Below are positions 12,255-35,895 of a stretch of 64,000 nt of DNA, in pieces; position 1 is the stretch's first letter, and each line of letters begins with the position of its first letter. The translations under genes and the position numbers were made by a program. The stretch spans positions 18,271 through 82,270 of the forward strand of contig JBBDKG010000013.1 of assembly GCA_040879435.1 (NCBI GenBank), in the 5' to 3' direction. The notes under the pieces were generated by a model. It saw only the letters and a list, made by a program, of their open reading frames with translations. It had not been told where the DNA came from and made no database searches. Origin of the DNA: Minisyncoccota bacterium (GTDB lineage: Bacteria > Patescibacteriota > Minisyncoccia > Phycocordibacterales > UBA918).

Positions 12255-12701
12255 TTAGGCGACGCTTCCACCAGCCTTTTCAATCTTCTCCTTTGCTGAC
12301 GCAGACACCGTACATCCGGTGACGGTGTACTTCTTGGTGATGTCGCCAGTGCCAAGGATCTTTACAGCAGGAGCCTTCCGTCCCTTTGTGGATATAAGTC
12401 CTGCCGCAACGAGTACCTTCGGATTCACCGGACCTGCTTCAAGTGACGTCTCAAGCGCTGCAAGATTCACCACGACCGGACGTACGCGCTCTGAATTCAC
12501 TGTATCTGCGCGGTTCTTTCCGTGACCACGAAGCTTCGGAAGCTTCTTGATCAGGTCGCGAACCTCCGGCCGCATGCTGTTCCCGGCGCGCGCCTTCTGT
12601 CCTTTGTGACCCCGACCCGACGTCTTGCCACGCTTTCCGCCACGACCGACGCGCTTTGCGGTCTTTCGTGCATGTGTTGGTTTTAGTTCGTGTAGTTGCA
12701 T
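12255..12701 (-). CDS. rplO: 50S ribosomal protein L15
   Basis: The product reads MQLHELKPTHARKTAKRVGRGGKRGKTSGRGHKGQ. Confidence 0.9.
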   Translation of the reverse strand: MQLHELKPTHARKTAKRVGRGGKRGKTSGRGHKGQKARAGNSMRPEVRDLIKKLPKLRGHGKNRADTVNSERVRPVVVNLAALETSLEAGPVNPKVLVAAGLISTKGRKAPAVKILGTGDITKKYTVTGCTVSASAKEKIEKAGGSVA

Positions 12702-12711
12702 AGTCAGGGTG

Positions 12712-13368
12712 TTAGTTCTTAAGAAGCTGAAGCGCCTTTATGGTCGCGCGGGCGTTGTTCAGCTTGTTCTTGCTACGAGAAAGTAGCTTTGCGGTCACGT
12801 CCTTCACGCCGGCAAGCTCCAGTACGGTACGCGCTGAAGATCCGGCGACAAGACCTCGTCCCGGTGCTGGGATGATGAGTACCTCGCTTGAGGCATACTT
12901 TGCTGCCACGTCGTGCGGGATGTGCTGATCCTTGTTCATCAGAACTGTGATCATGCACTTCTTTGCGTCACGGATCGCTTTTTCAATGGCAAGCTGTGTG
13001 TCACCGGCCTTGCCGATGCCGACACCTACCTTGCCTTTCTTGTCTCCGAGTACCATCGCGACCGAGAAGGTGAAACGGCGTCCACCGCCCATCACACGGG
13101 TCACGCGACGGATGCTGATGATCTTCTGATCGAATTCCGGTCGTGCCCGCTCAGAACGAGCACCCCCGCGTCGCGGTCGGCGCTGGTTCCGTCGTTCACC
13201 ATCCGCTCCTTGTTGTCGTCCCCGACCGCGCCCTCGTGGCGCCCCTGCAGCTGGTGGTGTACCACCAGAAGCGGGTGCATCGGCGACAGCTGCTGCTGTC
13301 TCTTTCGACGTATCGGCGGTGTTCGCCGTGTCGGTTGTAGCTTCCTGCTTTGTTATGTCTTCTGCCAT
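12712..13368 (-). CDS. rpsE: 30S ribosomal protein S5 with a low-complexity N-terminal extension
   Basis: The product contains IISIRRVTRVMGGGRRFTFSVAMVLGD; the N-terminus is Ala/Thr/Arg-rich. Confidence 0.9.
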   Translation of the reverse strand: MAEDITKQEATTDTANTADTSKETAAAVADAPASGGTPPAAGAPRGRGRGRQQGADGERRNQRRPRRGGARSERARPEFDQKIISIRRVTRVMGGGRRFTFSVAMVLGDKKGKVGVGIGKAGDTQLAIEKAIRDAKKCMITVLMNKDQHIPHDVAAKYASSEVLIIPAPGRGLVAGSSARTVLELAGVKDVTAKLLSRSKNKLNNARATIKALQLLKN

Positions 13369-13395
13369 GATGTAAATCTAGCTGCAGTTGATAAT

Positions 13396-13749
13396 TTAGA
13401 ACGCAAGTCCGTTCTCACGTGCCGCGTCTGCAAGTGCCGCAACATTGCCCTGATAGCGGAATCCACCGCGATCGAACACTGCTACACTCACCCCTGCGGC
13501 CTTCGCTTTCTCTGCGATCGTCTTCCCGACCCACGCGGCACGCTCGGTCATCGAGCTGCCGTCCGCATTTCGTGAGTCCGCAGCAGCAAGCGTTGAGCCT
13601 GTCTCATCATTGATGAGCTGGGCATACATGTACCGATTGCTGCGAAATACCGCAAGGCGCGGCCGCTCCGCTGTACCATGCACACGTGCACGAATGCGTG
13701 CGCGGCGTGACTCTCGTTGTGTTGTTTTGGTGTTGGTTGCCATATTCAA
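13396..13749 (-). CDS. rplR: 50S ribosomal protein L18
   Basis: The product contains RARIRARVHGTAERPRLAVFRSNRYMYAQLINDETGSTL. Confidence 0.9.
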   Translation of the reverse strand: MNMATNTKTTQRESRRARIRARVHGTAERPRLAVFRSNRYMYAQLINDETGSTLAAADSRNADGSSMTERAAWVGKTIAEKAKAAGVSVAVFDRGGFRYQGNVAALADAARENGLAF

Positions 13750-13753
13750 CTAG

Positions 13754-14284
13754 CTAAACGGCCTTCTTGCCCTGCTTACGGATAATGTATTCTCCCTGGT
13801 AATGGATACCCTTGCCCTTGTACGGCTCCGGCGGACGGACCGCACGGACGTTGGCGGCATACTGGCCAAGTGCCTCCTTGTCATGGCTTTCTACCGTGAC
13901 CACGTTCTTCTCAACCGTTGCGGTGACACCATCAGGGAACGGAAGTTCAACAGGGTGAGAATAGCCGACGTTCAGGACGAGAGAACTCCCACGTGCTTCA
14001 GCACGATACCCCACTCCTTCGATCTCGAGCACCTTCTTGAATCCTTCGGTCACACCCGCGATCATGTTCCGGATGTGTGCGGCGTATGTTCCCCACAGCG
14101 GATTTGCTTCTGCGCGCTGTGGTGTGACGGTGATGACACCATCTTCAAGGGCGAGCGCCACTTCTTTCTCCTTGATCGTGCGGGTAAGTGTCCCCTTCGG
14201 GCCAGTTACGGTAAGCACACCGCCTTCAAACGTCGCGGTAACCCCTGACGGGAGCGTAATTGGTTGTTTTCCTAGTCTGCTCAT
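13754..14284 (-). CDS. rplF: 50S ribosomal protein L6
   Basis: The product reads MSRLGKQPITLPSGVTATFEGGVLTVTGPKG. Confidence 0.95.
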   Translation of the reverse strand: MSRLGKQPITLPSGVTATFEGGVLTVTGPKGTLTRTIKEKEVALALEDGVITVTPQRAEANPLWGTYAAHIRNMIAGVTEGFKKVLEIEGVGYRAEARGSSLVLNVGYSHPVELPFPDGVTATVEKNVVTVESHDKEALGQYAANVRAVRPPEPYKGKGIHYQGEYIIRKQGKKAV

Positions 14285-14294
14285 ATCGTATGTG

Positions 14295-14690
14295 TTACCA
14301 GATCATGAAGAGCTGCTCACCTCCAACATGTGCCGTACGTGCCTCCTCGTCAGTGAGGATGCCCGCAGGTGTTGAGAGGATAAGGTTGCCCTTTCCGAAC
14401 TTTACCGGATAAATCTCTGCAGCCTTTGCATAGAGCCGACGACCAGGCTTACTCATACGCTTCACGCCGCTAATGCGATGGCTACCGCTCTCGTCATACT
14501 TGAGCGTCACCACAAGTGTCCGCTTCACGTCCTTCCCTGCTACCTCTGCATTCACCAGGTATCCTGCTTCGACCAGCTTTGTGGCCACTGCGTGCTTCAG
14601 GTTCGAGTACGGCAATGCCACCTGGTCCTTCTTGACCATGCCGGCGTTCTTAAGCTGGATGATGAAATCTCCGATCGTATCGCTTACCAT
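14295..14690 (-). CDS. rpsH: 30S ribosomal protein S8
   Basis: The product reads MVSDTIGDFIIQLKNAGMVKKDQVALPYS. Confidence 0.95.
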   Translation of the reverse strand: MVSDTIGDFIIQLKNAGMVKKDQVALPYSNLKHAVATKLVEAGYLVNAEVAGKDVKRTLVVTLKYDESGSHRISGVKRMSKPGRRLYAKAAEIYPVKFGKGNLILSTPAGILTDEEARTAHVGGEQLFMIW

Positions 14691-14869
14691 GATGATTTCT
14701 TTATTCCTGGTATATGTCCCTCGTGTGCCGCTTCACGGAAGCAGATTCGACACAGGTCGAAATCGCGCATGTATCCACGCTTACGGCCGCACTGCACGCA
14801 TCGACGAACGACACGGCTTTTGTATTTTGGTGTCCGTTCTGAACGGACGATAATGGATTTTCGTGCCAT
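14684..14869 (-). CDS. rpsZ: 30S ribosomal protein S14, type Z (zinc-binding)
   Basis: The 61 aa product has a CxxC...CxxC arrangement (CVQCGRKRGYMRDFDLCRIC). Confidence 0.9.
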   Translation of the reverse strand: MARKSIIVRSERTPKYKSRVVRRCVQCGRKRGYMRDFDLCRICFREAAHEGHIPGIKKSSW

Positions 14870-15054
14870 TTATAGGTCTTAGTGCTTGGCAGTATCACCG
14901 AGATGCGGTGACTTACCCCTATTAACGTCGCATATATCGCCCCACCCGCCTTCCGATCGAGAACTTTCGATTCGGCGCGTCAGATTTCCTTCAAATTGAG
15001 GAGTGTCTGCGATATATCGCTACGCGGAGTAGAATACAGCAAAATTATAAAAAA

Positions 15055-15090
15055 ACAAGGTCCGGCGAATCGATCGCCAGACCTTTTGAA
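15055..15090 (-). terminator. intrinsic terminator downstream of hypothetical gene 15107-15502
   Basis: aaggtccggcgaatcgatcgccagacctttt; the minus strand carries a T-tract. Confidence 0.6.
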
Positions 15091-15106
15091 ACGCGCCCCC
15101 CACCGC

Positions 15107-15502
15107 TTACGCTTTGCGCTGTCTCGTTCCGCCGAGCAATTCGTCGGTGAGCGCCTTCCACCCCGCTTCAGCTGCGCCGGGGACACGGTCGCCGATGTCG
15201 CGTGCTGCAGCAAAGAGTTCGTCGGTGAACTGCTTGAAGCCGGCGGAAGCATTCTTGCCCGTATGCTGGGCCTTCTCGCCAATGCCGAATGACGCAAGTG
15301 CGATCACTGCGGCAAGTTCGATTCTGACGGTTGCGGTGATGACTCCACCCGTATTGGGCTGTGCTTCGAGCACCAACCAGTCACGGACGAGCCCGTCGCC
15401 GTCCGGCTTGTGCTCGAACCGTGCGTTCGTGATAGAGAACGGAACGTCCCCCACCTGCGAACGAAAAGCCTCAAAAGCACCATTCTTGGGTTGTGTAGCC
15501 AA
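15107..15502 (-). CDS. hypothetical protein (131 aa, mixed beta/alpha, no recognisable domain)
   Basis: Clean ORF with its own terminators on both sides; the product begins MATQPKNGAFEAFRSQVGDVPF. Confidence 0.4.
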   Translation of the reverse strand: MATQPKNGAFEAFRSQVGDVPFSITNARFEHKPDGDGLVRDWLVLEAQPNTGGVITATVRIELAAVIALASFGIGEKAQHTGKNASAGFKQFTDELFAAARDIGDRVPGAAEAGWKALTDELLGGTRQRKA

Positions 15503-15551
15503 TGATCTATCCTTTCCTTCAAGAGTGTGCAGCGTACACTACGCTAGAGCA

Positions 15552-15588
15552 GAAAAAAATCAACCCCGGCAGTGACCCGCCGGGGTTG
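15552..15588 (-). terminator. intrinsic terminator downstream of the TAXI SBP gene
   Basis: The minus strand reads aaccccggcgggtcactgccggggttgattttttt. Confidence 0.8.
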
Positions 15589-15607
15589 TTCGCTAGAAGA
15601 GCAGAGC

Positions 15608-16633
15608 TCAGTCGGATGCGGGGTTGACCGCGCTCGTCGACTTGACCGACTTCGGCGTGAACACGTTCTCCCACTTCATTTCGCGGGAGGGATTGATGCG
15701 ACGCCACGCCGGATGCATTCCGGGCTCTTCCTGAAACCGGAGGATGTTCTCCCGGACGCAGGACTGGAGCTCGGAGAGTGCATTCACGAATTCGGGAGTC
15801 TTGTACTCCCACACGAAGAGGAGCGCGTCGACCGTCAGGGTCTCCGTGCCCTGGCCCGTGCTGCCGAGATTGTCGTAGCTGACCGTGGAGAGCCCGTAGA
15901 CGGACTCAACGTCCTCGGTGAGCTGCTTCCCGACCTCAAGGAGCTTGAACTCGCCTTTCGGCAGCTCTTCGATCCAGGAGGCCGGGTAGCCGACAGTGGC
16001 GATGATCGCATCGGCCTGGCCGTCGCGAATCATCTGGATCGCCTCGCCCTCGTTGCCGGCCGAGATGACGTTGAGGTTGAGACGGCCGAGCTGACCCACG
16101 ATCTTCGCCGTGGTGAGCGAGCCGCCCCAGGCGACCACCGTACGACCTTCAAGGCCGGCCACGTCGCGCAGCGGATTCTGCTGAACTTCGTAGACGGCTT
16201 CCTTGCTGCCGATCCCGGTGCCGAAGAAGCCTTCTTCGGCTTCCACGGTCATGACCGACACCATAGCGGGGACGATCACGTGGATCGCCTCCTCATGGAG
16301 CGGGAGCAGTGCCTGCACCCGCGGCATGTCGGGATTGACCTGGAGTTCGAGATACGCCTTGTCGAGCTGAGCCAGACCGCCGGGGATCTCGTTGCGGAGA
16401 ATACCCCGGATGTTGTTGTCTGATCCGCCGATCGACTTGCCGTCCTCGCCCAGGCGATGCTGAACGACGAGGGTGTCGCTGTTGCACACATCGGCGATCT
16501 GCTGGACAACGGGGTAGTACGTACCACCCTCGCCGCCGGAGCCGATCGTAAGCGTTGTCGGTGCCGCCGCGGCGAATGCCGTGCTGCCGCCGGCCACAAC
16601 TGCTGCGAGCATGAGCTGGTTCAAGTATTTCAT
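15608..16633 (-). CDS. TAXI-family TRAP-transporter solute-binding protein (orphan; no DctQM permease nearby)
   Basis: A signal peptide (MKYLNQLMLAAVVAGGSTAFAAAAP) is followed by TLTIGSGGEGGTYYP, which is characteristic of TAXI; an AGAAGGAG Shine-Dalgarno sequence precedes the ATG at 16631-16633. Confidence 0.75.
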   Translation of the reverse strand: MKYLNQLMLAAVVAGGSTAFAAAAPTTLTIGSGGEGGTYYPVVQQIADVCNSDTLVVQHRLGEDGKSIGGSDNNIRGILRNEIPGGLAQLDKAYLELQVNPDMPRVQALLPLHEEAIHVIVPAMVSVMTVEAEEGFFGTGIGSKEAVYEVQQNPLRDVAGLEGRTVVAWGGSLTTAKIVGQLGRLNLNVISAGNEGEAIQMIRDGQADAIIATVGYPASWIEELPKGEFKLLEVGKQLTEDVESVYGLSTVSYDNLGSTGQGTETLTVDALLFVWEYKTPEFVNALSELQSCVRENILRFQEEPGMHPAWRRINPSREMKWENVFTPKSVKSTSAVNPASD

Positions 16634-16667
16634 CGTGGTTCTCCTTCTTACGATGACTTCCGGTCCG

Positions 16668-16877
16668 TTACCGGAGCTTGAGTTTATTGATGGCATCCTC
16701 TTCACGCGAATCGGATACCGCCGGTCGTGCCGGGGCCGGCCGTGCGGCAGGCCCTGGCGGTTTCTTTTCTGCACGGACGGATGTTGTCGAACTCGACGAG
16801 AATCCGTCCGTGTATACATAACCGCCGCCAATGATGAGAATCATGACGATTACGGCTATGATGATGCGCCCTATCAT
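16668..16877 (-). CDS. small single-TM protein with a Pro/Ala-rich tail
   Basis: MIGRIIIAVIVMILIIGGGYVYT...; it lies between the 2-TM protein and the TAXI gene on the same strand. Confidence 0.35.
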   Translation of the reverse strand: MIGRIIIAVIVMILIIGGGYVYTDGFSSSSTTSVRAEKKPPGPAARPAPARPAVSDSREEDAINKLKLR

Positions 16878-16889
16878 GGTGCCTCCTTC

Positions 16890-17672
16890 CTAGGCCAGGA
16901 CTCTTTGCTTGTTGTCGAAGAAGTGAGGGGTCTGGAACGGCTCGTTGTCGTCCGTACCCGGATCCTTCTCATACGTGAGTCTGAGCACCTCCTGGGTGTC
17001 AGCATCCTTCTCGAGCAACATCTCGAGCTCGGCGAATGAGTCCGCGACGCTCTGTCGGACTGCGCCGATCGCCTCGCCCTTGAGGATCTCGTCGAGCGCA
17101 GCGTCGCCGCTGACGTTCTTGAGTTGACGCATGGCGCCGGAAGCTCGCTGAGCCCACTTGTGGTCCGCCTTCATGAAGCGGACTTTGCTGTGGTACTCCT
17201 GGAGCTGCTCCTCAGCGTCGCCAGCCTTGGTGCGAAGCACTGACACAGCGTTCTTCATCCGGTCCATCATTTCCTGACGGTCTGAAACGTCCTCATTCGG
17301 GAATTCCCTCTTGAGATCGTTCAGCTCATCCTGAGAGACCTTGTGTGCAGCCATCATTTGCTGCACATAGCTGACGAACTTATCGAGCGAGTTGCGCTTT
17401 TGCTGATAATCAAGCTCGAGCGTCTCGATCGGATTCATGCGAGCGTTCGCTTTCGCCAACTTGAGTGCCAGTGTCTTCATGATCCGAATGATCGAACCTG
17501 AGAAGAGGATGGCACCGGCGACGATCGCAGCGTAAACGCCGATCACCACCAGATTCGCCATCGCGAACGCTGCCATGCCGAGTACTGGACCCAGAATGGC
17601 GAGTACGAGAATGCAAACGAAGCCAAATACAGCCTTCTGCATTCCCGTCATTTCGGAGAATTTCGGCAACAT
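16890..17672 (-). CDS. 2-TM hairpin membrane protein with a cytoplasmic coiled-coil domain (possibly TelA/XpaC-like)
   Basis: ATG at 17670-17672 with an AGGAAGG Shine-Dalgarno sequence; two adjacent TM helices are followed by about 180 aa of helical, charged sequence. Confidence 0.45.
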   Translation of the reverse strand: MLPKFSEMTGMQKAVFGFVCILVLAILGPVLGMAAFAMANLVVIGVYAAIVAGAILFSGSIIRIMKTLALKLAKANARMNPIETLELDYQQKRNSLDKFVSYVQQMMAAHKVSQDELNDLKREFPNEDVSDRQEMMDRMKNAVSVLRTKAGDAEEQLQEYHSKVRFMKADHKWAQRASGAMRQLKNVSGDAALDEILKGEAIGAVRQSVADSFAELEMLLEKDADTQEVLRLTYEKDPGTDDNEPFQTPHFFDNKQRVLA

Positions 17673-17753
17673 CGAGGGATCCTTCCTTTGCTCGTTAATT
17701 GTCGAGATACTGCACAAAAATACCTGTGGACTTCACCACAGATTCCGGACGAG

Positions 17754-17782
17754 AGAGTATCACACATAGTATTGAATGTCAA
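17754..17782 (-). promoter_or_regulatory. consensus sigma70-type promoter (TTGACA-N17-extended -10 TGTGATACT) driving the TAXI island operon
   Basis: Read on the minus strand, the sequence is TTGACAttcaatactatgtgtgaTACTCT. Confidence 0.5.
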
Positions 17783-17818
17783 TATTTTCTGGAAAGGTTC
17801 CCCTCGGGGCAGTTCTAA

Positions 17819-17849
17819 GAAAAGACCGCACTTTCGTGCGGTCTTTTCT
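17819..17849. terminator. bidirectional intrinsic terminator downstream of rplE
   Basis: The sequence is gaaaagaccgcactttcgtgcggtcttttc. Confidence 0.8.
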
Positions 17850-17863
17850 ATATGTTGTTTGTC

Positions 17864-18412
17864 TTACGCAGCTACCTCCTCCTTCATGAGCGGCAGACCG
17901 ATATTTCGCAGGAATGCCTCTGCTTCCTCTTTGGACTTCGCGGTCGTCACGATAGTGATCGCGAACGAGAAGACGTCGCGGATATCCTCGTCAACGGTCT
18001 CCGGGAAGATAGTGTGCTCCTTGATACCGATGGTGATGTTCCCCATCTCATCAATGGCAGTCGGCTTGAGACCACGGAAGTCACGGGTCTGTGGGAGGGC
18101 GATATGCACCAGCTTGTCGAAAAAGTCGCGCATACGGGCGCCACGAAGGGTCACCTGGTATCCAACGACATCACCTTCACGAAGCTTGAACGATGCAATC
18201 GACTGACGCGCAGGTCGCGGTGCCGGCTTCTGGCCGGTGATGAGTGCGAGGCGATCCTGAATGAGGGCGATCTTTGCCTTGTCATCTACCTTGCCGGTAC
18301 CGACCGAGACCACGATCTTCTCCATTTTCGGCGCCTGCATCCGGTTGGTGTATGCAAAGGTGTCCTTCAAGGCATCGTAGACATGTTCGAGTTTTGCTTT
18401 GATTGGTTCCAT
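17864..18412 (-). CDS. rplE: 50S ribosomal protein L5
   Basis: MEPIKAKLEHVYDALKDTFAYTNRMQAPKMEKIVVSVGTG; the ORF track starts at an upstream TTG, and ATG 18410-18412 is preferred. Confidence 0.9.
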   Translation of the reverse strand: MEPIKAKLEHVYDALKDTFAYTNRMQAPKMEKIVVSVGTGKVDDKAKIALIQDRLALITGQKPAPRPARQSIASFKLREGDVVGYQVTLRGARMRDFFDKLVHIALPQTRDFRGLKPTAIDEMGNITIGIKEHTIFPETVDEDIRDVFSFAITIVTTAKSKEEAEAFLRNIGLPLMKEEVAA

Positions 18413-18437
18413 ACGCAAGTAGTTCTGGTGCTAATAA

Positions 18438-18737
18438 TTAAATGGTCTTTCCTGACGCACGTGAAATGCGTGACTTCGTATCTCCTTCCGTCTTGTATCC
18501 CACACGGACCGGCTTCTTCCCTTCAGTGAGGGCAACGTTTGAGATATGGATCGGAACGCTCTTCTCGATGATCTGTCCCTGTGAGCGGGTGCGGCGATTC
18601 TTCTGGTGACGGGTCACGACATTCACCCCTTCGATGAGCACTTGCTCCGTCTTCGGGAAGGCAGCGAGAACCGCACCGGACTTGCCTTTATCCTTGCCGG
18701 CGATCACCATCACATTGTCTCCTTTCTTGATCTTCAT
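18438..18737 (-). CDS. rplX: 50S ribosomal protein L24
   Basis: The product reads MKIKKGDNVMVIAGKDKGKSGAVLAAFPK (KOW motif). Confidence 0.9.
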   Translation of the reverse strand: MKIKKGDNVMVIAGKDKGKSGAVLAAFPKTEQVLIEGVNVVTRHQKNRRTRSQGQIIEKSVPIHISNVALTEGKKPVRVGYKTEGDTKSRISRASGKTI

Positions 18738-18741
18738 ATGC

Positions 18742-19113
18742 CTATACTACTTCAGGTGCCAATGACACGATCTTCTGATAACCGGCCTCTGAAAGCTCGC
18801 GCGGAATCGGACCGAACACACGGTTTGCACGCGGCTCCTTCTTTTCCTTGTCTACAAGCACGACCGCATTGTCGTCAAAACTGATGTACGAACCATCCAC
18901 GCGGCGGAACGGCTTGCGCTGTCGGACAACGACCCCGTACACGATATCCTTCTTCTTCGCCTGCTTTCGCGGTTCGGCGGTCTGTACCGAGAGCACGACC
19001 ATCTCGCCGAGCTCTGCGTACCGCTTCTTTGAGCCGCCGAGCACCTTGAACACCCGGCCGATCTTCGCGCCTGAGTTGTCCGTGATCTTTACGATTGATT
19101 GTGGTTGAATCAT
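18742..19113 (-). CDS. rplN: 50S ribosomal protein L14
   Basis: The product reads MIQPQSIVKITDNSGAKIGRVFKVLGGSKKRYA. Confidence 0.95.
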   Translation of the reverse strand: MIQPQSIVKITDNSGAKIGRVFKVLGGSKKRYAELGEMVVLSVQTAEPRKQAKKKDIVYGVVVRQRKPFRRVDGSYISFDDNAVVLVDKEKKEPRANRVFGPIPRELSEAGYQKIVSLAPEVV

Positions 19114-19120
19114 AAGCCGT

Positions 19121-19402
19121 TTATGAACCGCGAACGAGGGTGAATCGCTTCCGCTTGCTGATAGGCGTCGTCTCCTTTATCTCGACCTTCTCTCCGACCG
19201 CTGCCGTATTGCCAGCGTCATGCACGAGGTACTTCTTCGTCCGACGCAAGTATTTCTTGTATTTCGGATGTTTTGTATACCGCTCCACCGCGACCGTGCA
19301 CGTATCCTGCATCTTAGACGCGACCACCGTCCCGCGTAGCACACGGCCTCCCGCGGTGTTGCGGTCTGTCGTGGTATTCGTTGTTGTATGTTCAGTTGCC
19401 AT
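19121..19402 (-). CDS. rpsQ: 30S ribosomal protein S17
   Basis: The product contains RVLRGTVVASKMQDTCTVAVERYTKHPKYKK. Confidence 0.9.
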   Translation of the reverse strand: MATEHTTTNTTTDRNTAGGRVLRGTVVASKMQDTCTVAVERYTKHPKYKKYLRRTKKYLVHDAGNTAAVGEKVEIKETTPISKRKRFTLVRGS

Positions 19403-19413
19403 AAATATAAATG

Positions 19414-19638
19414 CTAGCGGGTTGCTTTCACGCGGCGGGTAACTTCGGTAAGTGCCTGTGCGACATGCTTTTTCGCGGTCCGTATCTTCCGTACATCCCG
19501 CAGTCCGGTCGTGAAGCGCTGCTCGCGCACAGTCTCACGCTCGGTCCGGATGAACTCCGCAAGGTCCGTATCGCTCATTTTTGAAATGTCATTCATGCTC
19601 GTCATAATCAGGTATGTATTATGCGCCCGTATCTTCAC
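19414..19638 (-). CDS. rpmC: 50S ribosomal protein L29 (true start probably internal, near 19596-19605)
   Basis: The product contains MSDTDLAEFIRTERETVREQRFTTGLRDVRKIRTAKKHVAQALT. Confidence 0.8.
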   Translation of the reverse strand: MKIRAHNTYLIMTSMNDISKMSDTDLAEFIRTERETVREQRFTTGLRDVRKIRTAKKHVAQALTEVTRRVKATR

Positions 19639-23552: not shown

Positions 23553-23553
23553 A

Positions 23554-28094: not shown

Positions 28095-28136
28095 TGCCGC
28101 CTCCTCTCTGCTTGGGGCCTGTTTCTATCTCTTCGT

Positions 28137-28165
28137 ATACTACCACATATTTATGTATAAGTCAA
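28137..28165 (-). promoter_or_regulatory. near-consensus sigma70 promoter TTGACT-N17-TAGTAT for the ClpP-like gene
   Basis: Minus strand: ttgacttatacataaatatgtggtagtat, with a GAGGAGG Shine-Dalgarno sequence 6 nt before the ATG. Confidence 0.5.
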
Positions 28166-28184
28166 AATTATCCCCACGCACAAC

Positions 28185-28218
28185 AAAAGCCGCCAGGCAA
28201 AGCCTGGCGGCTTTTGTG
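28185..28218. terminator. bidirectional intrinsic terminator downstream of rpsJ
   Basis: The sequence is aaaagccgccaggcaaagcctggcggcttttgtg. Confidence 0.8.
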
Positions 28219-28228
28219 AAGGCAACCA

Positions 28229-28591
28229 CTAGATCATTTTGACATCGATGTTCACACCTGAGGGTAGCGAGAGGTTCGTGAGAGCCTCGATCACCTTCCC
28301 GCCCGGGTTGTGAATGTCGATGACACGCTTATGCATGCGCATCTCGAACTGTTCTCGCGCATCCTTGTGCACGAACGTTGAGCGGTTCACTGTGTACTTC
28401 TTGATCTCCGTTGGAAGTGGGATCGGTCCCACCACCTTCGCATCAAAGCGAAGTGCGGTGTCAATGATCTGCTTTACGCTCGCATCAAGGATCTTGTGTT
28501 CGTATGCACGTACGCGGATCCGTAGTTTCTGGATCTCGCCGCCGGCATCCTTGCCCTTTGCGGGAGTCTTCTTTTTCTCTGTAGTTGCCAT
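28229..28591 (-). CDS. rpsJ: 30S ribosomal protein S10
   Basis: The product contains IRIRVRAYEHKILDASVKQIIDTALRFDAKVVGPIPLPT. Confidence 0.95.
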   Translation of the reverse strand: MATTEKKKTPAKGKDAGGEIQKLRIRVRAYEHKILDASVKQIIDTALRFDAKVVGPIPLPTEIKKYTVNRSTFVHKDAREQFEMRMHKRVIDIHNPGGKVIEALTNLSLPSGVNIDVKMI

Positions 28592-28631: not shown

Positions 28632-29825
28632 TTAGGCGACGATCTTCGTTACCACACCGGCACCAACCGTCTTTCCGCCTTCGCGGATCGCGAACGTCTG
28701 CTTCTCTTCGAGCGCGACCGGAGCAACCAGCTTCACTTTGAAGGTCGCGGTGTCTCCCGGCATCACCATCTCAGTTCCTTCCGCAAGGGTCACTTCACCC
28801 GTCACGTCAGTGGTGCGGATGTAGAACTGCGGCTTGTAACCACCGAAGAACGGCGTGTGTCGTCCGCCTTCTTCCTTCGAGAGTACGTATACCTCAGCTT
28901 CGAAGTCAGTGTGTGGAGTAACTGCGCCTGAAGCTGAAAGTACCTGTCCGCGGTGTACGTCCTCCTTCTTCGTACCACGGAGGAGAATACCTGCGTTGTC
29001 TCCAGCCTGCGCTGAGTCAAGAGACTTGTTGAACATTTCAACGCCGGTCACTGTCGTCTTCGTTGTATCCTTGATACCAACGATCTCGATCTCTTCACCA
29101 ACCTTGACCTGTCCGCGCTCTACACGACCGGTCACTACCGTGCCGCGTCCTTCAATCGAGAAGATGTCCTCGATCGGCATAAGGAACGGCTTGTCGAGAT
29201 CACGTTCTGGAAGCGGGAAGTATGAATCCATCGCGTCCACGAGTTCAACGACCTTCTGTCCGTACTCACCTGCAGGATCCTCAAGCGCCTTGAGGCCTGA
29301 ACCGTGGATGATCGGCGCTTCAGCACCGTCGTATCCATTCTTGGTAAGGAGCTCACGAAGCTCTTCCTCCACGAGCATAAGCATTTCCTCATCGTCGACC
29401 ATGTCGCACTTGTTGAGGAATACGATGATCTTCGGTACACCCACCTGGTGCGCCAAAAGCACGTGCTCGCGTGTCTGAGGCATCGCACCGTCTGTTGCGG
29501 CTACCACAAGTACCGCGCCGTCCATCTGTGCGGCACCGGTGATCATGTTCTTGATGTAGTCGGCGTGACCTGGCGCGTCGATGTGCGCGTAGTGTCGGTT
29601 CGGGGTCTCGTACTCAGAGTGCGAGAGAGAAATAGTAATACCGCGCGCCTTCTCTTCCGGCGCTTTGTCGATATCTTCCACCGCCTTGAGGTTGGCGCTG
29701 TAGCCGTCGCCCTTCGCGTGAAGCACGTTGAGGATCGCAGCTGTAAGCGTGGTCTTACCATGGTCAACGTGACCAATGGTACCAACGTTCATGTGCGGCT
29801 TCGATCGGTCAAAATCTGCTGCCAT
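28632..29825 (-). CDS. tuf: elongation factor Tu
   Basis: The 397 aa product contains [21 protein letters not shown] and NKCD. Confidence 0.97.
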
Positions 29826-30167
29826 AATGAATATTGATTAGATAACTAAATAATCCGCACACAGCTGCTTTTTACAATGAAAAAGCCATGCACGAGCACT
29901 CAGGGGTTGCGGCGCGAGAAACGCGCGACCTCCGGGCACACGAACGTGTGAAAGAGCAAAGTATATTTACTCCCTACAGCAAAAGCTGTAACGGTGGCGG
30001 TATGGTACATGAGTGATGTGGTGTTTGCAAGCCTTATTCCTCGATCCCACGCCCTTTGCGAACGAAAGTGAAATCTTCATAGACAGTGCCAGGTTGTACA
30101 TAATGAAGAAATTGTGAAATTATGAGGTAAAGCAACGTCACCGATCAACCAGGAAAGGAGGAAGGCG

Positions 30168-30770
30168 ATGCGTGGAAGGTTCTTTTACTATATAGCGGTG
30201 CTTCTCTGCATACTGTCTCCTTCCATAGCGGCAGGTGACAATATGAAGACGGGTACTCAGACGTCCCAACCTATTGGCCATTACGACTTCTGCCAGGTAC
30301 TTCCTACAGAATGCACGATCCGACCGCAGAAGGTCGGACCAATAGTGCTCACCGACAAGGTCTGGCTCCTGATCGTCTCGACGAACAACGAGGTCAACAG
30401 TGCCGTTCGCCCGCTGAACGACATCGATATCTACGGCCGGGACGAGGTCTGGACCTATCCAGACAATGGAAGCGGTGACTGCGAGGACTATGCCCTCCTG
30501 AAGCGGCGCGAGCTCAATCAGGCCGGCATCTCGCTTGCCAACCTTCTTATCACCGTGGTGCGCAAACCCGACGGTGAAGGGCATGCGGTACTCACGGTCC
30601 GCACGAATACAGGCGATATCGTTCTCGACAACCTCACTGACGAGGTCCGGTCGTGGCGAGACACCGGCTACCGCTTTCTGAAGCGTCAGGCCAGCTATCA
30701 CACCGGCAGGTGGGTCAGTTTCGACCGACGTGATAGAGTCGGCCATCTAGCCTCCACTGATGGAAGGTAG
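30168..30770 (+). CDS. bacterial transglutaminase-like cysteine proteinase (BTLCP family), secreted
   Basis: The product has a signal peptide and reads GSGDCEDYALLKRRELNQAGIS...GEGHAVLTV (Cys/His catalytic arrangement); a strong Shine-Dalgarno sequence (aggaaaggagga) precedes it. Confidence 0.7.
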   Translation: MRGRFFYYIAVLLCILSPSIAAGDNMKTGTQTSQPIGHYDFCQVLPTECTIRPQKVGPIVLTDKVWLLIVSTNNEVNSAVRPLNDIDIYGRDEVWTYPDNGSGDCEDYALLKRRELNQAGISLANLLITVVRKPDGEGHAVLTVRTNTGDIVLDNLTDEVRSWRDTGYRFLKRQASYHTGRWVSFDRRDRVGHLASTDGR

Positions 30771-30787
30771 GGTCGCCACCCAAACGC

Positions 30788-30821
30788 AAAAGCCCCCGAC
30801 ACAGTGCCGGGGGCTTTTTTC
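30788..30821. terminator. bidirectional intrinsic terminator (BTLCP gene / fusA)
   Basis: The sequence is aaaagcccccgacacagtgccgggggcttttttc. Confidence 0.85.
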
Positions 30822-30836
30822 TATATGACCTCTTGC

Positions 30837-33002
30837 TTATTCAGCCGCCTCAGTGGTGATACCACGCGCCTTCTTGATCTCCATCGCCACGTTCGGTGGT
30901 ACGACCGCGTAGTGGTCGAACTCCATCACCATGTTTGCCCTACCTTCGGTCATCGAACGGAGTGTGGTGGTGTATCCGAAGAGTTCGGAGAGCGGCACCA
31001 TCGCCTTGATCACCTTCACCATGTCACGGTCCTCCATACCTTCGACGAGTCCGCGCTTTGATGAGATGTTTCCGTTGATGTCACCCATGAACTTCTCCGG
31101 AGTGGTGACCTCGATCTTCATGATCGGCTCCAAGAGGACCGGATTCGCACGCTGCGCTGCCTCCTTGAAGGCATTGATGCCGGCAAGCTTGAAAGCGATC
31201 TCTGAGGAGTCCACATCGTGGTAGCTACCATCGAAGAGTTCGACGGAGATATCTTCCATCTTGTATCCGGCAACGAGACCGCGTCCCATCGCCTCACGAC
31301 AACCCTTCATCACGGCCGGGATAAACTCACCCGGGATCACACCTCCCTTGATGTTGTTGACGAACTCAAAGTGATCCTCACGAGTGACGTTCTTCTTCAC
31401 CTCCTCGTCCTCAGCAAGTGGCACCATCGGTTTGATCCTGATCTTCACATGACCATACTGACCGCGACCACCAGACTGCTTGATATATTTATGCTCCGCC
31501 TCAGCTTCGCGCTGGATGGTCTCACGATACGCAACCTGTGGCTTGCCGGTCGCGGCCTCAACTCCGAACTCGCGCTTCATACGATCAACGAGGATCTCAA
31601 GGTGGAGCTCACCCATACCCGCGATGATCGTTTCCATCGTCTCGTCGTCGGATGAGACCTTGAAGGTCGGGTCCTCGTCGGAGAGCTTCTTCAGTGCAAT
31701 ACCCATCTTCTCCTGATCGTTCTTCGTCTTCGGCTCGATACGCATCGCGACCACTGGCTCGGGAAAGGTGATCTCCTCAAGTACGATCGGCTTGTCCTCA
31801 TCACACAGTGTGTGAGACGTCTTCACGTCCTTCAGACCCACACCTGCCGCGATCTCGCCAGCGTACACCTCTTCAACCTCTTCACGTTTATCTGCCTGCA
31901 GACGGACAATACGGCCGAGACGTTCTTTCTCTCCGGTGTTCGCATTGAACACATAGCTACCTGCTTTGACGGTACCTGAATACACACGGAAGAACGTGAG
32001 CGCCCCCACGAATGGGTCGGTCTGAAGCTTGAACGCAAGTGCGCAGAACGGAGACTCATCACGCGCCTCACGTGTCTCAGGCTCATCGGTCTTCGGATTC
32101 TTGCCTTCGATCGGCGGAAGGTCCACCGGTGATGGGAGGTAGTCCACGACAGCGTCGAGAATGCGCTGTACGCCGACGTTCTTCAAAGCCGAACCGGTCA
32201 TGACCGGGAAGATCTGGTTATCGATCACCGCCTTGCGAAGTGTCTTCTGGAGTTCCTCGTAGCTTGGCTCGTTCCCTTCAAGGTACGCGTTCATCTGCGC
32301 TTCGTCGTTCTCAACGATCCGCTCCACAAGCTCACCGTGATACTTTTCAGCTTCGGCTCGGTATTCATCTGGGATCTCGTGCTCGATCACATTCATTCCC
32401 ATGTCGCCCTCGAAGGTGTATGCCTTCATCTTGAGAAGGTCGATCACACCTGAAAGGTTATCCTCCTTGCCCCATGGGATCTGGAAACGAACCGCCTTTG
32501 GAGAAAGTCGTTTCAAAATAGTGTCGTATGAACGCTCGAAGTCGGCACCGACGCGGTCCATCTTGTTGATGAAACAGATACGCGGTACCCCTGCCTCGTC
32601 AGCATAGCGCCAGTTCGTTTCGGACTGCGGCTCCACTCCGGCCACGCCGTCGAACACCACGATCGCACCGTCCAAAACACGCATCGAACGCTTCACCTCT
32701 GCGGTGAAGTCGATGTGTCCCGGTGTATCGATGATGTTGAACGTGAACTTGTGCTCTTTGCTGGTTCGGTCAGGATTCAGAGAGGGCGTCCAGTCGCAGG
32801 AAATAGCGGCGGCGGTGATGGTGATACCACGCTCACGCTCCTGGTCCATCCAGTCGGTCACGGTCTCTCCGTCGTGTACCTCGCCGATCTTGTGGCTCAT
32901 GCCGGTATAGAAGAGCACGCGCTCGGATGTGGTGGTCTTGCCGGCGTCAACGTGCGCGACAATACCGAAGTTACGTAGTCTCTCGAGTGGGAATTTTCTC
33001 AT
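30837..33002 (-). CDS. fusA: elongation factor G
   Basis: The 721 aa product reads [24 protein letters not shown]... Confidence 0.97.
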
Positions 33003-33113
33003 AAGTTGATGTTTGTATAAATAAAAACGGGCGCTGGCGCCGATTAAGTGCCGGTACTATACGGTATTTAGGATGAAACGGCAACAGTCTCCTGCCTCTG
33101 ATACAATTGACCT

Positions 33114-33545
33114 ATGCCCAAGAAAATCGTCCTTAAGACAAAAGAAACGAAGCGAAGTCCTGCCGCATTCCTCAACACGGTCACTGACAAAGAACAGCGT
33201 ACAGACGCAAAGAAACTACTCGCACTGTTCAGGAAGGTGACCGGCAAACAGCCGAAGATGTGGGGACCGTCGATCATCGGCTTTGGTTCATATACGTACA
33301 CACGCAGCAATGGTGACGTTGGTGAGTTCCTTGCAACCGGCTTCTCACCACGCAAAGGAAACCTCACGCTCTACATAATGCCGGGATACCAAAATTACGA
33401 CGATATGCTCAAGAAGCTTGGCCCCCACAAACTCGGGAAGTCGTGTTTGGATATAAAGGAACTTGAGGATATTGATACGCAGGTGCTCGAGAAACTGATC
33501 AAGAGAGGGCTGGTTGACCTGAAGAAGACGCACCTGGTGAAATAA
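33114..33545 (+). CDS. DUF1801 (YdhG-like) domain protein
   Basis: The product begins MPKKIVLKTKETKRSPAAFLNTVTDKEQRTDAKKLLALFRKVTG, with the typical DUF1801 layout. Confidence 0.55.
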   Translation: MPKKIVLKTKETKRSPAAFLNTVTDKEQRTDAKKLLALFRKVTGKQPKMWGPSIIGFGSYTYTRSNGDVGEFLATGFSPRKGNLTLYIMPGYQNYDDMLKKLGPHKLGKSCLDIKELEDIDTQVLEKLIKRGLVDLKKTHLVK

Positions 33546-33583
33546 AAACGCACATCGTATCTCGATGTGCGTTTTCTTATTCC

Positions 33584-34303
33584 CTACTCCGCAAACCAAA
33601 CGGTGATCTCAAGTGCATCGTCGTGCTCCGGCAGACCGGATGCATTCGCCTTCTGGAGAATAAGGGTGCCGCGTTTCATAAAGTCAGGATCGCCTTCGGT
33701 GTATGGGTTCGTGAATTCAAGCTCTGCCGTGAATGGAACAAAGTTGGTCGTCATCCACTCATCCTGTGCGGTCGCAAACCCTTCTGCGATGATGAGCCCG
33801 TCCCAATCAGTGAGTACTATCGGGAACGTCGCCTCAAAGTACCACTGTCCGCGTGCCTCACCTTCGATAGTGAGCGGGCTTTCGATAACCGAATCAACGG
33901 TCGGCGTTGTGAGCCGGATCAACTCTTCGTCGTCTTCCTCCTCGACCACAACATCTCCTGAGGTACAACCTTCGAACATCACCTCACCGTCAACAAGCAC
34001 GACTGATTCGGCACCCTTGTTCCAGAATACGAACGATTCATCACTGTTCGTGTATCGCGCGCCGGACGCCGCAACTGCAGGCGTGAGTTCATATGGTGTG
34101 TCGTTCAGAGTGAGGACAAGGCTCTCGTCCTCGAGAAACTCTGTTTTGAGCATCGTACCGTCTGAACAGGTCAGTGTCTCCGTGTGTACTACAACTCGAT
34201 CATCAGGATCAAGTTCAGCACTATTTGGTAGCGTAAAGTATACAAATAGTGCACCGGCAACAACGACCGCAAGTCCAAAGAGTATAAGAAGGAATGTTTT
34301 CAT
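33584..34303 (-). CDS. membrane-anchored protein with an MliC-like N-domain and a Gmad2/GerM-type Ig-like C-domain
   Basis: An N-terminal TM is followed by CSDG..ARYTNSDESFVFWNKG (MliC-like), and the C-terminus reads GEARGQWYFEATFPIVLTDWDGLIIAEG...WMTTNFVPF (Gmad2 signature). Confidence 0.55.
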   Translation of the reverse strand: MKTFLLILFGLAVVVAGALFVYFTLPNSAELDPDDRVVVHTETLTCSDGTMLKTEFLEDESLVLTLNDTPYELTPAVAASGARYTNSDESFVFWNKGAESVVLVDGEVMFEGCTSGDVVVEEEDDEELIRLTTPTVDSVIESPLTIEGEARGQWYFEATFPIVLTDWDGLIIAEGFATAQDEWMTTNFVPFTAELEFTNPYTEGDPDFMKRGTLILQKANASGLPEHDDALEITVWFAE

Positions 34304-34413
34304 ACGCTGCTAGCGTACCATACCTATCATGAAGCGGAAGTGGTGTAATAGCGCTCGCTCCTTCCCCCTGATTGTGTATACTGCGGCTAGAAAGCCCGAA
34401 CAGGAGACCTGAA

Positions 34414-34884
34414 ATGGGGATTGAAATCGAACGAAAGTTTCTTCCGAAAAACGATGACTGGCGCAACTTCGCCACCGATCCTGCGACCATACGGCAAGGA
34501 TACCTCGCGAGAGAATACGGCAACGTTGTTCGTGTACGGATCACCGATATCGAAGGTACTACGACTTCGCAGCTATGTATCAAAGGGCTCAAGCAGGGTG
34601 GTGAAATTCCCGAGTACGAGGTTTCGATACCTCACGACATGGCACTCGAACTGTTCAAGCTATGCGAATGGAGTATCAAGAAGATCCGCCGTCATGTTTA
34701 TGCTGGCGACCACACCTTTGAAATCGATGAATTCGCGGGAAATCTGCGAGGACTAGTGGTCATCGAAGTGGAACTAGGGTCTGTCGGCGAGCAAGTTGAT
34801 CTGCCAGACTGGATCGGGAAGGAAATCACCGACGACCCACGGTACAACAATGCTCACCTCTGCGAACATGGCGTTCCGGGGTGA
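34414..34884 (+). CDS. CYTH-domain protein (triphosphate tunnel metalloenzyme / class IV adenylate cyclase-like)
   Basis: The product begins MGIEIERKFL (ExExK motif); an AGGAGA Shine-Dalgarno sequence lies upstream. Confidence 0.65.
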   Translation: MGIEIERKFLPKNDDWRNFATDPATIRQGYLAREYGNVVRVRITDIEGTTTSQLCIKGLKQGGEIPEYEVSIPHDMALELFKLCEWSIKKIRRHVYAGDHTFEIDEFAGNLRGLVVIEVELGSVGEQVDLPDWIGKEITDDPRYNNAHLCEHGVPG

Positions 34885-34905
34885 CACGCCTCTTTCCCAA
34901 AAACA

Positions 34906-34935
34906 AAACGGGCCATATGGCCCGTTTTCTCTTGT
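34906..34935. terminator. bidirectional intrinsic terminator between rpsG and the cargo island
   Basis: The sequence is aaaacgggccatatggcccgttttctcttg. Confidence 0.8.
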
Positions 34936-34959
34936 CTGGTGAAAATTGCGTTCTCTTTC

Positions 34960-35433
34960 CTACCACGCAAAGTGAGCGAACGCACGGTTGGCCTCGGCCA
35001 TCTTGTGCACGTCCTCCTTCTTCTTCACTGCCGCACCTTCTTCACGGGCTGCGAGCATAAGCTCAGCAGCGAGCGCCTTGTGCATTGGCACACCTTTCTG
35101 TCCGCGAGCGGACGAGATGATCCACCGAAGCGCGAGTGCTGTTCGTCGCTCAGGACGGACCTCACGCGGTACCTGGTAGTTCGCACCACCAACACGACGT
35201 GAGCGCACCTCCATCATCGGGCCGGCATTGCGGAGCGCGGTCTCGAAGATCTCTACCGGATCCCCACCGCCTTCCTTGGCGTTCTTAATTTCTTCAAAAG
35301 CACTGTATACGATCTTGCGTGCGGTCTCCTTCTGACCACGGAGCATGATGTAGTTAATGAGTCGCTCGACGGGTACGGAACCGTACTGTACGTCGGGCTT
35401 TACCTCTGGTCGTTTCTTTATTGGTCTTCGCAT
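34960..35433 (-). CDS. rpsG: 30S ribosomal protein S7
   Basis: The product reads [42 protein letters not shown]. Confidence 0.95.
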
Positions 35434-35481
35434 AATGTCCTTTCGTTATCTATAGCGAATATAGACTATTTATAATGTAGA

Positions 35482-35895
35482 TTAATCACCCTTTGGTCGC
35501 TTTGCACCGTATCGTGAGCGTCCTCGTCGTCGTGCATCCACGCCCGTCGCGTCATACTTTCCACGAACCACGGTGTAGTTCACACCGATGTCCTTCACGC
35601 GACCGCCGCGCACCAGTACCACTGAGTGCTCCTGAAGTGTGTGGCCTTCGCCGGGAATATACGCAGTGATCTCCTGACCGTTCGTGAGACGAACGCGGGC
35701 GATCTTTCGCACCGCAGAGTTCGGCTTACGTGGGGTCTTCGTGGTCACACGCGTACACACACCCCGCTTGAACGGTGAGTTGTATCGGTTCGGCTGGTTC
35801 TTCACCTTGTTGAAGCCAGTGCCGAGCGCGCCGGTATTGGTCTTGGTGACCGGGTCGCGGCGCTTCTTTCGAGCTAGTTGATTGATGGTTGCCAT
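35482..35895 (-). CDS. rpsL: 30S ribosomal protein S12
   Basis: The product begins [20 protein letters not shown] and contains [10 protein letters not shown]-like and VRGGRVKD motifs; the start is taken as ATG 35893-35895. Confidence 0.95.

Follow-up and report, generated by a model that had tools for sequence, protein, structure and literature searches.

Five conserved breakpoints with predicted terminators, leader RNAs and variable cargo in the str-S10-spc ribosomal protein gene cluster of a Paceibacteria clade

The S10-spc-str cluster of ribosomal protein genes is a textbook case of a gene order that resists change. Here, we describe this cluster in a 64-kb stretch of contig JBBDKG010000013.1 from a Minisyncoccota bacterium (hereafter, the window), where five gaps filled with other genes interrupt it. 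Other layouts of the cluster are known: in cyanobacteria and plastids, and also in archaea, S10 is linked to tuf, and L3 opens the large cluster. With regard to regulation, the S10 operon of Escherichia coli carries a leader on which L4-mediated attenuation takes place, a system linked to a paper on autoregulatory leaders of ribosomal proteins reportedly published by Fu et al. in 2013. Further, integration hotspots between conserved core genes of bacterial pangenomes are said to have been treated by Oliveira et al. in 2017. Insertions into the cluster are on record for Gammaproteobacteria and Bacilli, but these are isolated, infrequent events whose content is stable; examples are nrdHEF inside the rpoBC operon, and tusBCD and bfr-bfd, which separate the rpoBC, str and S10 operons (PMC8046335). 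A candidate L4 leader upstream of rplC was reported only in Archaeoglobi, in a study that lists no leader for the candidate phyla radiation (CPR) (Eckert and Weinberg 2020, PMC7247131). In the literature searched, we found no description of a fragmentation of this cluster in the CPR.

Like the insertions of Gammaproteobacteria and Bacilli, those studied here place few genes (<10 kb) between parts of the cluster, give no evidence of transfer from distant species and are sometimes followed by complete disconnection, in this case in the relatives L008 and L033. Unlike them, they are found at five sites, each of which falls within one of the canonical E. coli operons (str, S10 and spc); their content varies, and each site has a dedicated predicted terminator, promoter and leader. 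The linkage of tuf with S10 and the position of L3 at the head of the next unit resemble the cyanobacterial, plastid and archaeal layout; in contrast to it, the clade shows extra breaks at S7/fusA, fusA/tuf, L2/S19 and L5/S14, a closed S17/L14 boundary and variable cargo. As in pangenome hotspots, a single core-gene interval with conserved flanks holds accessory genes that differ between genomes and turn over rapidly. Unlike those hotspots, the intervals lie inside the most conserved gene cluster of bacteria, lack integrases, tRNAs and prophages, and are resolved to the spacer between a terminator and a promoter. New in this clade are five conserved internal breakpoints, dedicated terminators predicted to be bidirectional, new leader RNAs and a high turnover of cargo. 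The likely explanation, judging from sequence comparison, is an old, clade-wide re-partition of the cluster into autonomous, individually regulated units whose spacers would serve as permissive slots.

Gene order and breakpoints of the cluster

In the window, the canonical order S12-S7-fusA-tuf-S10-L3...L15-secY was intact, with all ribosomal genes on the minus strand. NCBIfam models identified secY, L15, S5, L18, L6, S8, type-Z S14, L5, L24, L14, S17, L16, S3, L22, S19, L2, L23, L4 and L3. S10, tuf, fusA, S7 and S12 were identified by 87–94% identity to Pfam-annotated genes of the related locus L081, the S12 match comprising only 20 residues at the cut end of L081 (annotated as PF00164). L29, without an NCBIfam match, was assigned from its place between L16 and S17 and from 59% identity to the corresponding open reading frame (ORF) of L081. 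L30 was absent from the cluster, as has been reported for the CPR (PMC9297842). The genes are arranged in the following units:

34960–35895 (−): unit 1, rpsL (S12, 35482–35895) and rpsG (S7, 34960–35433; 94% identical to L081)
30837–33002 (−): unit 2, fusA (elongation factor G) alone, 89% identical to the Pfam-annotated gene product of L081
28229–29825 (−): unit 3, tuf (28632–29825) and rpsJ (S10, 28229–28591), from the comparison with L081
24082–26686 (−): unit 4, L3, L4, L23 and L2 (NCBIfam)
17864–21450 (−): unit 5, S19, L22, S3, L16, L29, S17, L14, L24 and L5 (NCBIfam; L29 by position and identity)
10967–14869 (−): unit 6, type-Z S14, S8, L6, L18, S5, L15 and secY (10967–12238) (NCBIfam)
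9654–10250, 8884–9657 and 8231–8875 (−): adk, map and ndk, the unit after the sixth slot (Pfam)

The tight contiguity of E. coli-type operons is broken by gaps at 33003–34959, 29826–30836, 26687–28228, 21451–24081 and 14870–17863, each 1.0–3.0 kb long and all with real genes. The initial annotation of the window had proposed five interruptions at these very junctions, and both its gene identities and its coordinates were exact. A sixth insert, at secY/adk, lies beyond the range which that annotation covered. Within unit 1, S12 and S7 are about 50 bp apart.

For comparison, the region of L2 ±10 kb was taken from one genome apiece of 80 related species, and the window proteins were mapped onto these loci. 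The closest species-level relatives are labelled Nomurabacteria, Kaiserbacteria or Paceibacteria, and their L2 protein is at most 80–83% identical to that of the window; in the most distant relatives kept (L074–L079), L2 identity is 63–65%. Only five of the 24 adjacent ribosomal pairs were open, with median gaps of 1001 bp (S7/fusA), 1331 bp (fusA/tuf), 1631 bp (S10/L3), 1822 bp (L2/S19) and 904 bp (L5/S14). Gaps above 300 bp were found in 159 of 179 cases at these five pairs, compared to 2 of 785 at the other 19, where medians ranged from −75 to 79 bp; among the latter are tuf/S10 (79 bp), the internal pairs of unit 4 (at most 12 bp) and S17/L14 (5 bp), which in E. coli is the boundary between the S10 and spc operons and is closed in this clade.

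The five sites were occupied in 80–98% of the species, and the gap at one junction could range from <300 bp to about 10 kb. Junctions free of cargo still measured 150–300 bp and kept a terminator, a promoter and a leader (e.g., S10/L3 of L013, 217 bp). In nearly all of some 50 related species with an L2 63–80% identical to that of the window, the same five junctions were open, which does not agree with the initial framing of the fragmentation as peculiar to one genome. Since the junctions are open so widely, the breakpoints, terminators, promoters and leaders would be ancestral to the whole clade. In L045 (5922–12964), [tuf-S10] and [L3-L4-L23-L2] are swapped with respect to the other genomes, exactly at the common breakpoints, and in L008 and L033 no S19 was found within 10 kb downstream of L2. 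This swap, the two disconnections and the closed S17/L14 boundary fit modules that would behave independently.

Terminators, promoters and leader RNAs

Terminators were scanned for as RNAfold hairpins of −8 kcal/mol or lower with a T-tract directly after, within 110 nt of a stop codon. All five gaps of the window start in a hairpin with a T-tract (−17 to −26 kcal/mol), and the same scan found no terminator after the remaining ribosomal genes of the window, except for a weak one (−10.2) after L15. The GC-rich hairpin with an immediate T-tract just past the stop codon, characteristic of intrinsic terminators, was thus present at the unit ends:

34899–34928: predicted terminator after S7, bidirectional, −17.2 kcal/mol; a perfect palindrome bordered by an A-tract and a T-tract, which also closes the convergent CYTH gene
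30782–30820: predicted terminator after fusA, common to the convergent BTLCP gene, −22.0 kcal/mol
28180–28217: predicted terminator after S10, bidirectional, −26.3 kcal/mol; perfect 16-nt inverted repeat (I23)
24041–24079: predicted terminator after L2, bidirectional, −20.9 kcal/mol
17815–17849: predicted terminator after L5, bidirectional, −16.6 kcal/mol
10913–10955: predicted terminator after secY, bidirectional, −26.6 kcal/mol; perfect 17-nt inverted repeat (I12)

This independent scan recovered all four terminators quoted in the initial annotation (24044–24080, 28185–28218, 17819–17849 and 34906–34935), plus others. In the relatives, terminators followed S7, fusA, S10, L2 and L5 in 83, 78, 78, 91 and 89% of loci, respectively, and secY in 50%, with median strengths of −17 to −22 kcal/mol at unit ends; the other ribosomal genes had them in 0–30% of loci, and these were weaker (medians of about −8 to −15 kcal/mol). 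Unit-end terminators started at a median of 19 nt past the stop codon, and 154 of 187 have a mirrored A-tract and are, hence, called bidirectional. A generic scan of the window gave about twice the shuffled expectation (22 vs. 11.8 ± 3.6 and 20 vs. 11.5 ± 3.7); the positional pattern is stronger evidence for terminators than this enrichment.

Promoter-like sites were compared between the sense and antisense strands of the same 260-nt windows upstream of the first gene of each unit. Sites resembling those of sigma-70 were more frequent in sense before fusA (18 vs. 5), S19 (26 vs. 8) and S14 (10 vs. 1), and the enriched sites stand 110–190 nt before the start codons. The following sites and leaders were predicted in the window:

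33056–33084 (−): promoter-like site of fusA, TTGCCG-17-TATAGT; the leader behind it is short (about 50 nt)
30002–30030 (−): putative promoter of tuf, TTGCAA-17-TACCAT (promoter and leader, 29846–30030)
26842–26869 (−): predicted promoter of L3, TTGCAA-16-TATACT
21604–21632 (−): putative promoter of S19, TTGACA-17-TATTAT, with 11 of 12 consensus matches
26727–26837 (−): structured leader of L3, with an attenuator-type hairpin and a U-tract (covariance model R1)
29846–30000 (−): structured leader of tuf, about 175 nt, with several covarying helices
within 21451–21632 (−): leader of S19, 150 nt, with a conserved core at about 21493–21554 (blastn)

In the fusA promoter region, L081 and L073 share a 24-nt core with the window at 100% identity, and TATAGT is the commonest −10 element before fusA among the relatives, as TTGACA is the commonest −35 element before S19. 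Alignments of the relatives further showed a conserved TTGCAA-N16/17-TAnnnT before L3 and tuf. We infer that the terminators and promoters function as such. The islands would then be insulated by terminators, as initially claimed and as the predicted hairpin/T-tract sites of the window and its relatives support, and the expectation of about seven short transcription units translates into most likely six or seven.

The L3 leader was the best supported of the RNA elements. Its 5' part consists of an invariant AAGACCUAYGU, a variable hairpin and an invariant GACCAAUGGGCAC; the 3' part is a long hairpin (AAAYCGCGCY ... GCGAGC-UUGUG-CUCGCG ... RGCGCGRUUU) followed by a U-rich sequence. Single-sequence RNAfold z-scores were −5 to −7 (−5.0 for the window). 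A covariance model (R1), built from 17 sequences and applied at E ≤ 1e-10, gave a single match per locus in 64 of 64 sources, just upstream of L3, and scored 64 bits on the window (E of about 1e-14). In the alignment, 95.1% of the cells were paired, 29 of 36 pairs showed a compensatory change, and 381 cells were changed on both sides compared to 107 ± 8 in shuffles; slid controls paired in 33–49%. This leader is, hence, a 5' untranslated structure with covariation support in front of a ribosomal protein operon; for tuf, the covariation support is weaker. The tuf leader was found by blastn in about 25 loci, and 30 of 47 loci carry its sequence motif. In this leader, a long-range helix (CCGC...GCGG) may close the structure and compete with a local hairpin.

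Neither the L3 nor the tuf leader had an Rfam 15 match at gathering score or at E ≤ 5; at the latter threshold, only sub-threshold matches of small RNA models were obtained in the window, mostly on terminator hairpins. Both are taken to be previously undescribed conserved structured RNAs. Like the E. coli S10 leader and the L4 leader of Archaeoglobi, the L3 leader is a structured 5' leader directly before an operon that encodes L4, and it bears a terminator-type hairpin with a U-tract; unlike the E. coli leader, it precedes L3 rather than S10, and it lacks an Rfam 15 match. Because an attenuator-type hairpin and U-tract precede the L4-encoding operon, this leader is probably an autoregulatory site, with L4 (or L3, L23 or L2) as the candidate ligand.

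The core of the S19 leader was 89–96% identical over 53–62 nt in L009, L011, L018 and L043, against only about 77% identity of their L2 to that of the window, and a 154-nt stretch was 76% identical in L081. It forms a long hairpin (GGGAAC-UGUGUGG ... CCACACG-GGUUC) and occurs only in the subclade of the window; when the 220 nt before S19 were aligned with MAFFT for all loci, no clade-wide conservation was seen. The S12 leader (35945–36010, −) has a strong hairpin and then a GUUUUCUUUUCC U-tract (z of −3.4), and the fusA leader (33020–33045, −) a small GC hairpin with a T-tract. Elements resembling attenuators may therefore recur across these units.

Cargo of the slots and its turnover

Across the five junctions of the relatives, cargo ORFs (at least 70 residues) numbered 394 in 267 similarity clusters, with 236 singletons, and 91 long representatives matched 83 Pfam families, including surface and adhesin domains, SDR, PhoH, pirin, PIN, GNAT and Lgt. 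The initial annotation had reasoned that a broadly conserved gene order with the same inserted genes would make the arrangement ancestral; order and breakpoints are indeed conserved broadly, whereas the inserted genes, in view of these singletons, mostly are not. For the window, Pfam matches, terminators and the protein lengths given by NCBI guided a manual correction of the gene models, and the slots contain:

34414–34884 (+): slot 1, CYTH-domain gene (Pfam)
33584–34303 (−): slot 1, gene for a lipoprotein-like protein with MliC and Gmad2 domains (Pfam)
33114–33545 (+): slot 1, DUF1801 gene (Pfam)
30168–30770 (+): slot 2, BTLCP (Peptidase_C93) gene (Pfam, E = 2e-61)
27588–28094 (−): slot 3, gene for a 168-residue protein with an N-terminal transmembrane (TM) segment and a terminator of its own (27568–27601)
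23554–24027 and 22581–23552 (−): slot 4, pair of membrane protein genes (157 and 323 residues)
22339–22539 (+): slot 4, 66-residue ORF
21694–22209 (−): slot 4, NUDIX gene (terminator 21646–21682)
16890–17672 (−): slot 5 cassette, gene for a 260-residue TM/coiled-coil protein
16668–16877 (−): slot 5 cassette, gene for a 69-residue TM protein
15608–16633 (−): slot 5 cassette, gene for a TAXI-type solute-binding protein (terminator 15553–15588)
15107–15502 (−): slot 5, 131-residue ORF (terminator 15049–15085)
10274–10900 (+): sixth slot, cytidylate-kinase-like gene (Pfam)

The nearest relatives (81–83% L2 identity) share the BTLCP, MliC/Gmad2 and CMP-kinase-like genes at equivalent positions and lack the window's cargo of slots 3, 4 and 5. 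In slot 1, MliC/Gmad2 was the only gene shared with relatives (61% identity in L081 and 68% in L045). BTLCP is a subclade resident of slot 2, found in identical position and orientation in L001, L019, L081 and the P0004 contig, and a member of its family also lies in the fusA/tuf slot of L040, as listed in the ORF-cluster table. The kinase-like gene stands at the equivalent position, opposite in orientation to the cluster, in the P0004 contig and L081.

For the 168-residue protein of slot 3, no homologue was found at any junction of the relatives. The remainder of that slot (26870–27567) comprises about 700 bp without a convincing gene; a 61-residue hydrophobic ORF (27102–27287, +) and a plus-strand terminator-like hairpin (27526–27550) were observed there. 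Comparison of 26870–27590, the end of island 5 and the region around the NUDIX gene with all collected loci by tblastx and blastn revealed nothing conserved. Of the slot 4 pair, the 323-residue protein has only 13 homologues, and the pair is conserved in L086–L088, at unrelated loci.

When the cargo families of the relatives were ordered on a tree of L3, L4 and L2, resident families tracked subclades and differed between them. A DUF2103-like gene (about 105 residues, MPKPRGxEHTxLTETA...) stands antisense in the L2/S19 slot of 33 loci, e.g., L023 (11726–12046, −), and marks a large subclade; it is absent from that of the window. Genes for a SpoU rRNA methylase and an S-adenosylmethionine (SAM) methyltransferase occupy S10/L3 in L009, L011, L019, L040, L073 and the P0004 contig. 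Further subclade residents are a peptidoglycan-binding protein, a set of extracytoplasmic function (ECF) sigma and anti-sigma factors and, in a basal group, a DUF3298 protein.

A multi-copy secreted family without a Pfam match was also observed, whose members carry the pattern AQW..PT..P..N..APINVG..Q.K.G behind an N-terminal TM segment. In 15 species, this family is present as tandem arrays with as many as six copies, in the S10/L3, L2/S19 and fusA/tuf slots and always on the ribosomal strand (e.g., L066 10967–15401, L069 2959–8084, L022, L025, L058 and L062). The window itself carries an ECF sigma gene (2796–3446, −) with a DUF5667 neighbour (1723–2799, −) outside the cluster; in L034, L042 and L061, the L2/S19 cargo includes an ECF sigma gene with about 30% identity to that of the window, followed by two more genes common to these relatives.

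Cargo was co-oriented with the ribosomal genes in 61% of cases, compared to a bias of 65% among flanking genes. The idea that cargo is co-oriented to exploit ribosomal transcription was rejected, as terminators precede the cargo and its strand bias equals that of the flanking genes.

Origin of the slots and their cargo

Based on these features, we propose the following sequence of events. The ancestor of this Paceibacteria clade would have kept the str-S10-spc gene order but re-partitioned it into six or seven autonomous units, namely [S12-S7], [fusA], [tuf-S10], [L3-L4-L23-L2], [S19...L5], [S14...secY] and [adk-map-ndk]. Every unit would end, about 19 nt past the final stop codon, in a strong intrinsic terminator that is bidirectional in most cases, and the next would restart from its own sigma-70-type promoter with a leader of 50–200 nt. 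The terminator-to-promoter spacer could then become a permissive slot, because expression of the ribosomal genes would no longer depend on read-through. Self-contained modules of one to three genes, with promoters and terminators of their own, would be gained, lost, duplicated and occasionally exchanged in these slots, and certain modules would remain as long-term residents. For the arrival of cargo, two candidate routes are inferred: DNA that has been taken up recombines homologously via the conserved ribosomal flanks, or insertion is random and selection decides which inserts persist. The latter is equally tenable, since modules also occur elsewhere and one family fills several slots.

Several points weigh against such a re-partition or limit its reach. 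The sample holds a single genome per species, from which rates of gain and loss are not derivable, and it covers relatives only (L2 identity of at least 63%; the matches of an L2 protein search were all 74% identical or more), so that the age and taxonomic limit of the event are not fixed. The greedy ORF caller overcalls singletons, and in this GC-rich window it took the ORF antisense to BTLCP and made N-termini too long. Both promoters and terminators were predicted from consensus features, in a phylum whose signals have been little studied, and the pairing counts of the L3 leader are inflated, as its alignment was fitted to the model, though the margin is large. The strand bias of the cargo gives no sign of selection for co-expression with the ribosomal genes. 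Finally, several cargo genes are stable within subclades, and some cargo may on that account be functionally tied to its position.

A possible, though doubtful, alternative to the re-partition into permissive slots is an active hotspot, in which homologous recombination through the highly conserved ribosomal flanks would target cargo from the DNA of relatives to these sites. The TAXI cassette is the clearest case. With only 14 homologues among 5.8e9 proteins, the cassette is rare, and it was found in four genomic contexts (window 15608–17672, −; L083 4853–6920; L084 7023–8975; L085 123–2271). In two of them, the window and L083, it lies directly after L5, even though L083 comes from a distant relative (L055, a contig of the same metagenome-assembled genome (MAG), has 72% L2 identity). 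It is more GC-rich than the host in each context (0.55 in L083 vs. 0.45 in its flanks) and was not found in any locus of the 80 representative species (L5 is included in about 40 of these loci). An absence of recombinases would also suit a hotspot driven by the flanks. As the initial annotation had stated, Pfam searches found no recombinase domain among the island ORFs of the window, and the cargo of the relatives gave no strong recombinase match among the 91 representatives, as judged from the best 25 of the 83 Pfam families. A precedent would be the natural competence with homologous recombination shown in CPR Saccharibacteria (PMC10187176). In contrast, the cassette lies elsewhere in L084 and L085 and, like the slot 4 gene pair, occurs at unrelated loci, and the placement of one surface-protein family in three different slots is not predicted by flank homology. 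Further, the TAXI proteins of the window and L083 are 64% identical, below the 74% of their L5, which is compatible with old vertical descent and losses. Tentatively, the two views could be combined: the units would be modules separately attenuated under the new leader RNAs, among them an L4-type attenuator before L3 and the 175-nt leader before tuf-S10, and the spacers a recombinase-free gateway of these reduced genomes, through which cargo is exchanged among species by homologous recombination in the flanks once DNA has been taken up naturally.

We consider it improbable that lineage-specific genes, e.g., accessory factors of the ribosome or of translation, joined the cluster once and were then conserved as fixed and functionally integrated inserts. 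Such genes would account for the persistence of the SpoU and SAM methyltransferase, DUF2103-like, BTLCP and CMP-kinase-like residents within subclades. These residents vary, however, by subclade, 60% of the cargo ORFs are singletons, the 91 representatives match as many as 83 unrelated Pfam families, and the size of one junction differs among genomes by kilobases (<300 bp to about 10 kb). Moreover, the NUDIX, CYTH, DUF1801, TAXI and membrane protein genes of the window have no link to translation.

A recent mosaic, in which foreign DNA from mobile elements or transfer broke an intact cluster in this organism alone, is very unlikely. It would explain why the nearest relatives have nothing that corresponds to islands 3, 4 and 5, and the TAXI cassette, GC-rich relative to the host and present in unrelated contexts elsewhere, has the features expected of it. 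Against it, nearly every relative, down to an L2 identity of 63%, has the five junctions open, and the terminators, promoters and leaders at these junctions are conserved. Hallmarks of mobile elements were also missing: besides the absence of recombinases, a scan for tRNA and tmRNA genes found none in the 64-kb window, and a search for att-like repeats at the islands gave only terminator palindromes and chance matches, with no flanking direct or inverted repeats. Island GC was 0.50–0.575 (host 1.5-kb windows, 0.543 ± 0.019), tetranucleotide distances were within the background for their length, and GC content at third codon positions (GC3) of the island genes lay within the host range, except for TAXI (0.82 vs. 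about 0.65). Composition, which the initial annotation had put forward as a check for a recent mosaic, did not distinguish the islands from the host except for the TAXI gene, and this mostly host-like composition may argue against a recent foreign origin, the TAXI cassette excepted.

That the pattern is an artefact of assembly or binning, i.e., of chimeric contigs, can practically be dismissed: the window derives from a MAG, but many studies have yielded independent assemblies, more than 50 in all, with the same architecture, and the junctions carry conserved regulatory sequence. The pattern also holds in the closed chromosome CP060229 (L057), which excludes such an artefact.

With the clade-wide re-partition as the preferred reading, the clade implies that co-transcription is dispensable once each piece of the cluster has its own control. 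It would offer a natural system to follow how autoregulation of ribosomal proteins is redistributed after operon splitting, and how genes are gained and lost in genomes of about 1 Mb without obvious mobile elements, and it raises the question of the ligands of two new, well-supported leader RNAs. In practical terms, pipelines for phylogenomics or binning that expect the ribosomal block to be compact and syntenic will find it interrupted in these lineages by as much as 10 kb of DNA that is unrelated and at times unusual in composition.

Some observations concern the surroundings and the proteins of the cluster. The alpha-operon genes (infA, L36, S13, S11, S4, rpoA and L17) are not in their usual place after map, which is followed instead by ndk and an RNase J-like beta-CASP gene, and the 28 kb upstream of S12 (36000–64000 of the window) contain no ORF of the size of rpoB or rpoC. 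Judging from predicted start codons, S5 (12712–13368) has an Ala/Thr-rich N-terminal extension of about 77 residues before its conserved domain, and shorter extensions are predicted for L23 (24993–25376, about 35 residues) and S17 (19121–19402, about 19 residues).

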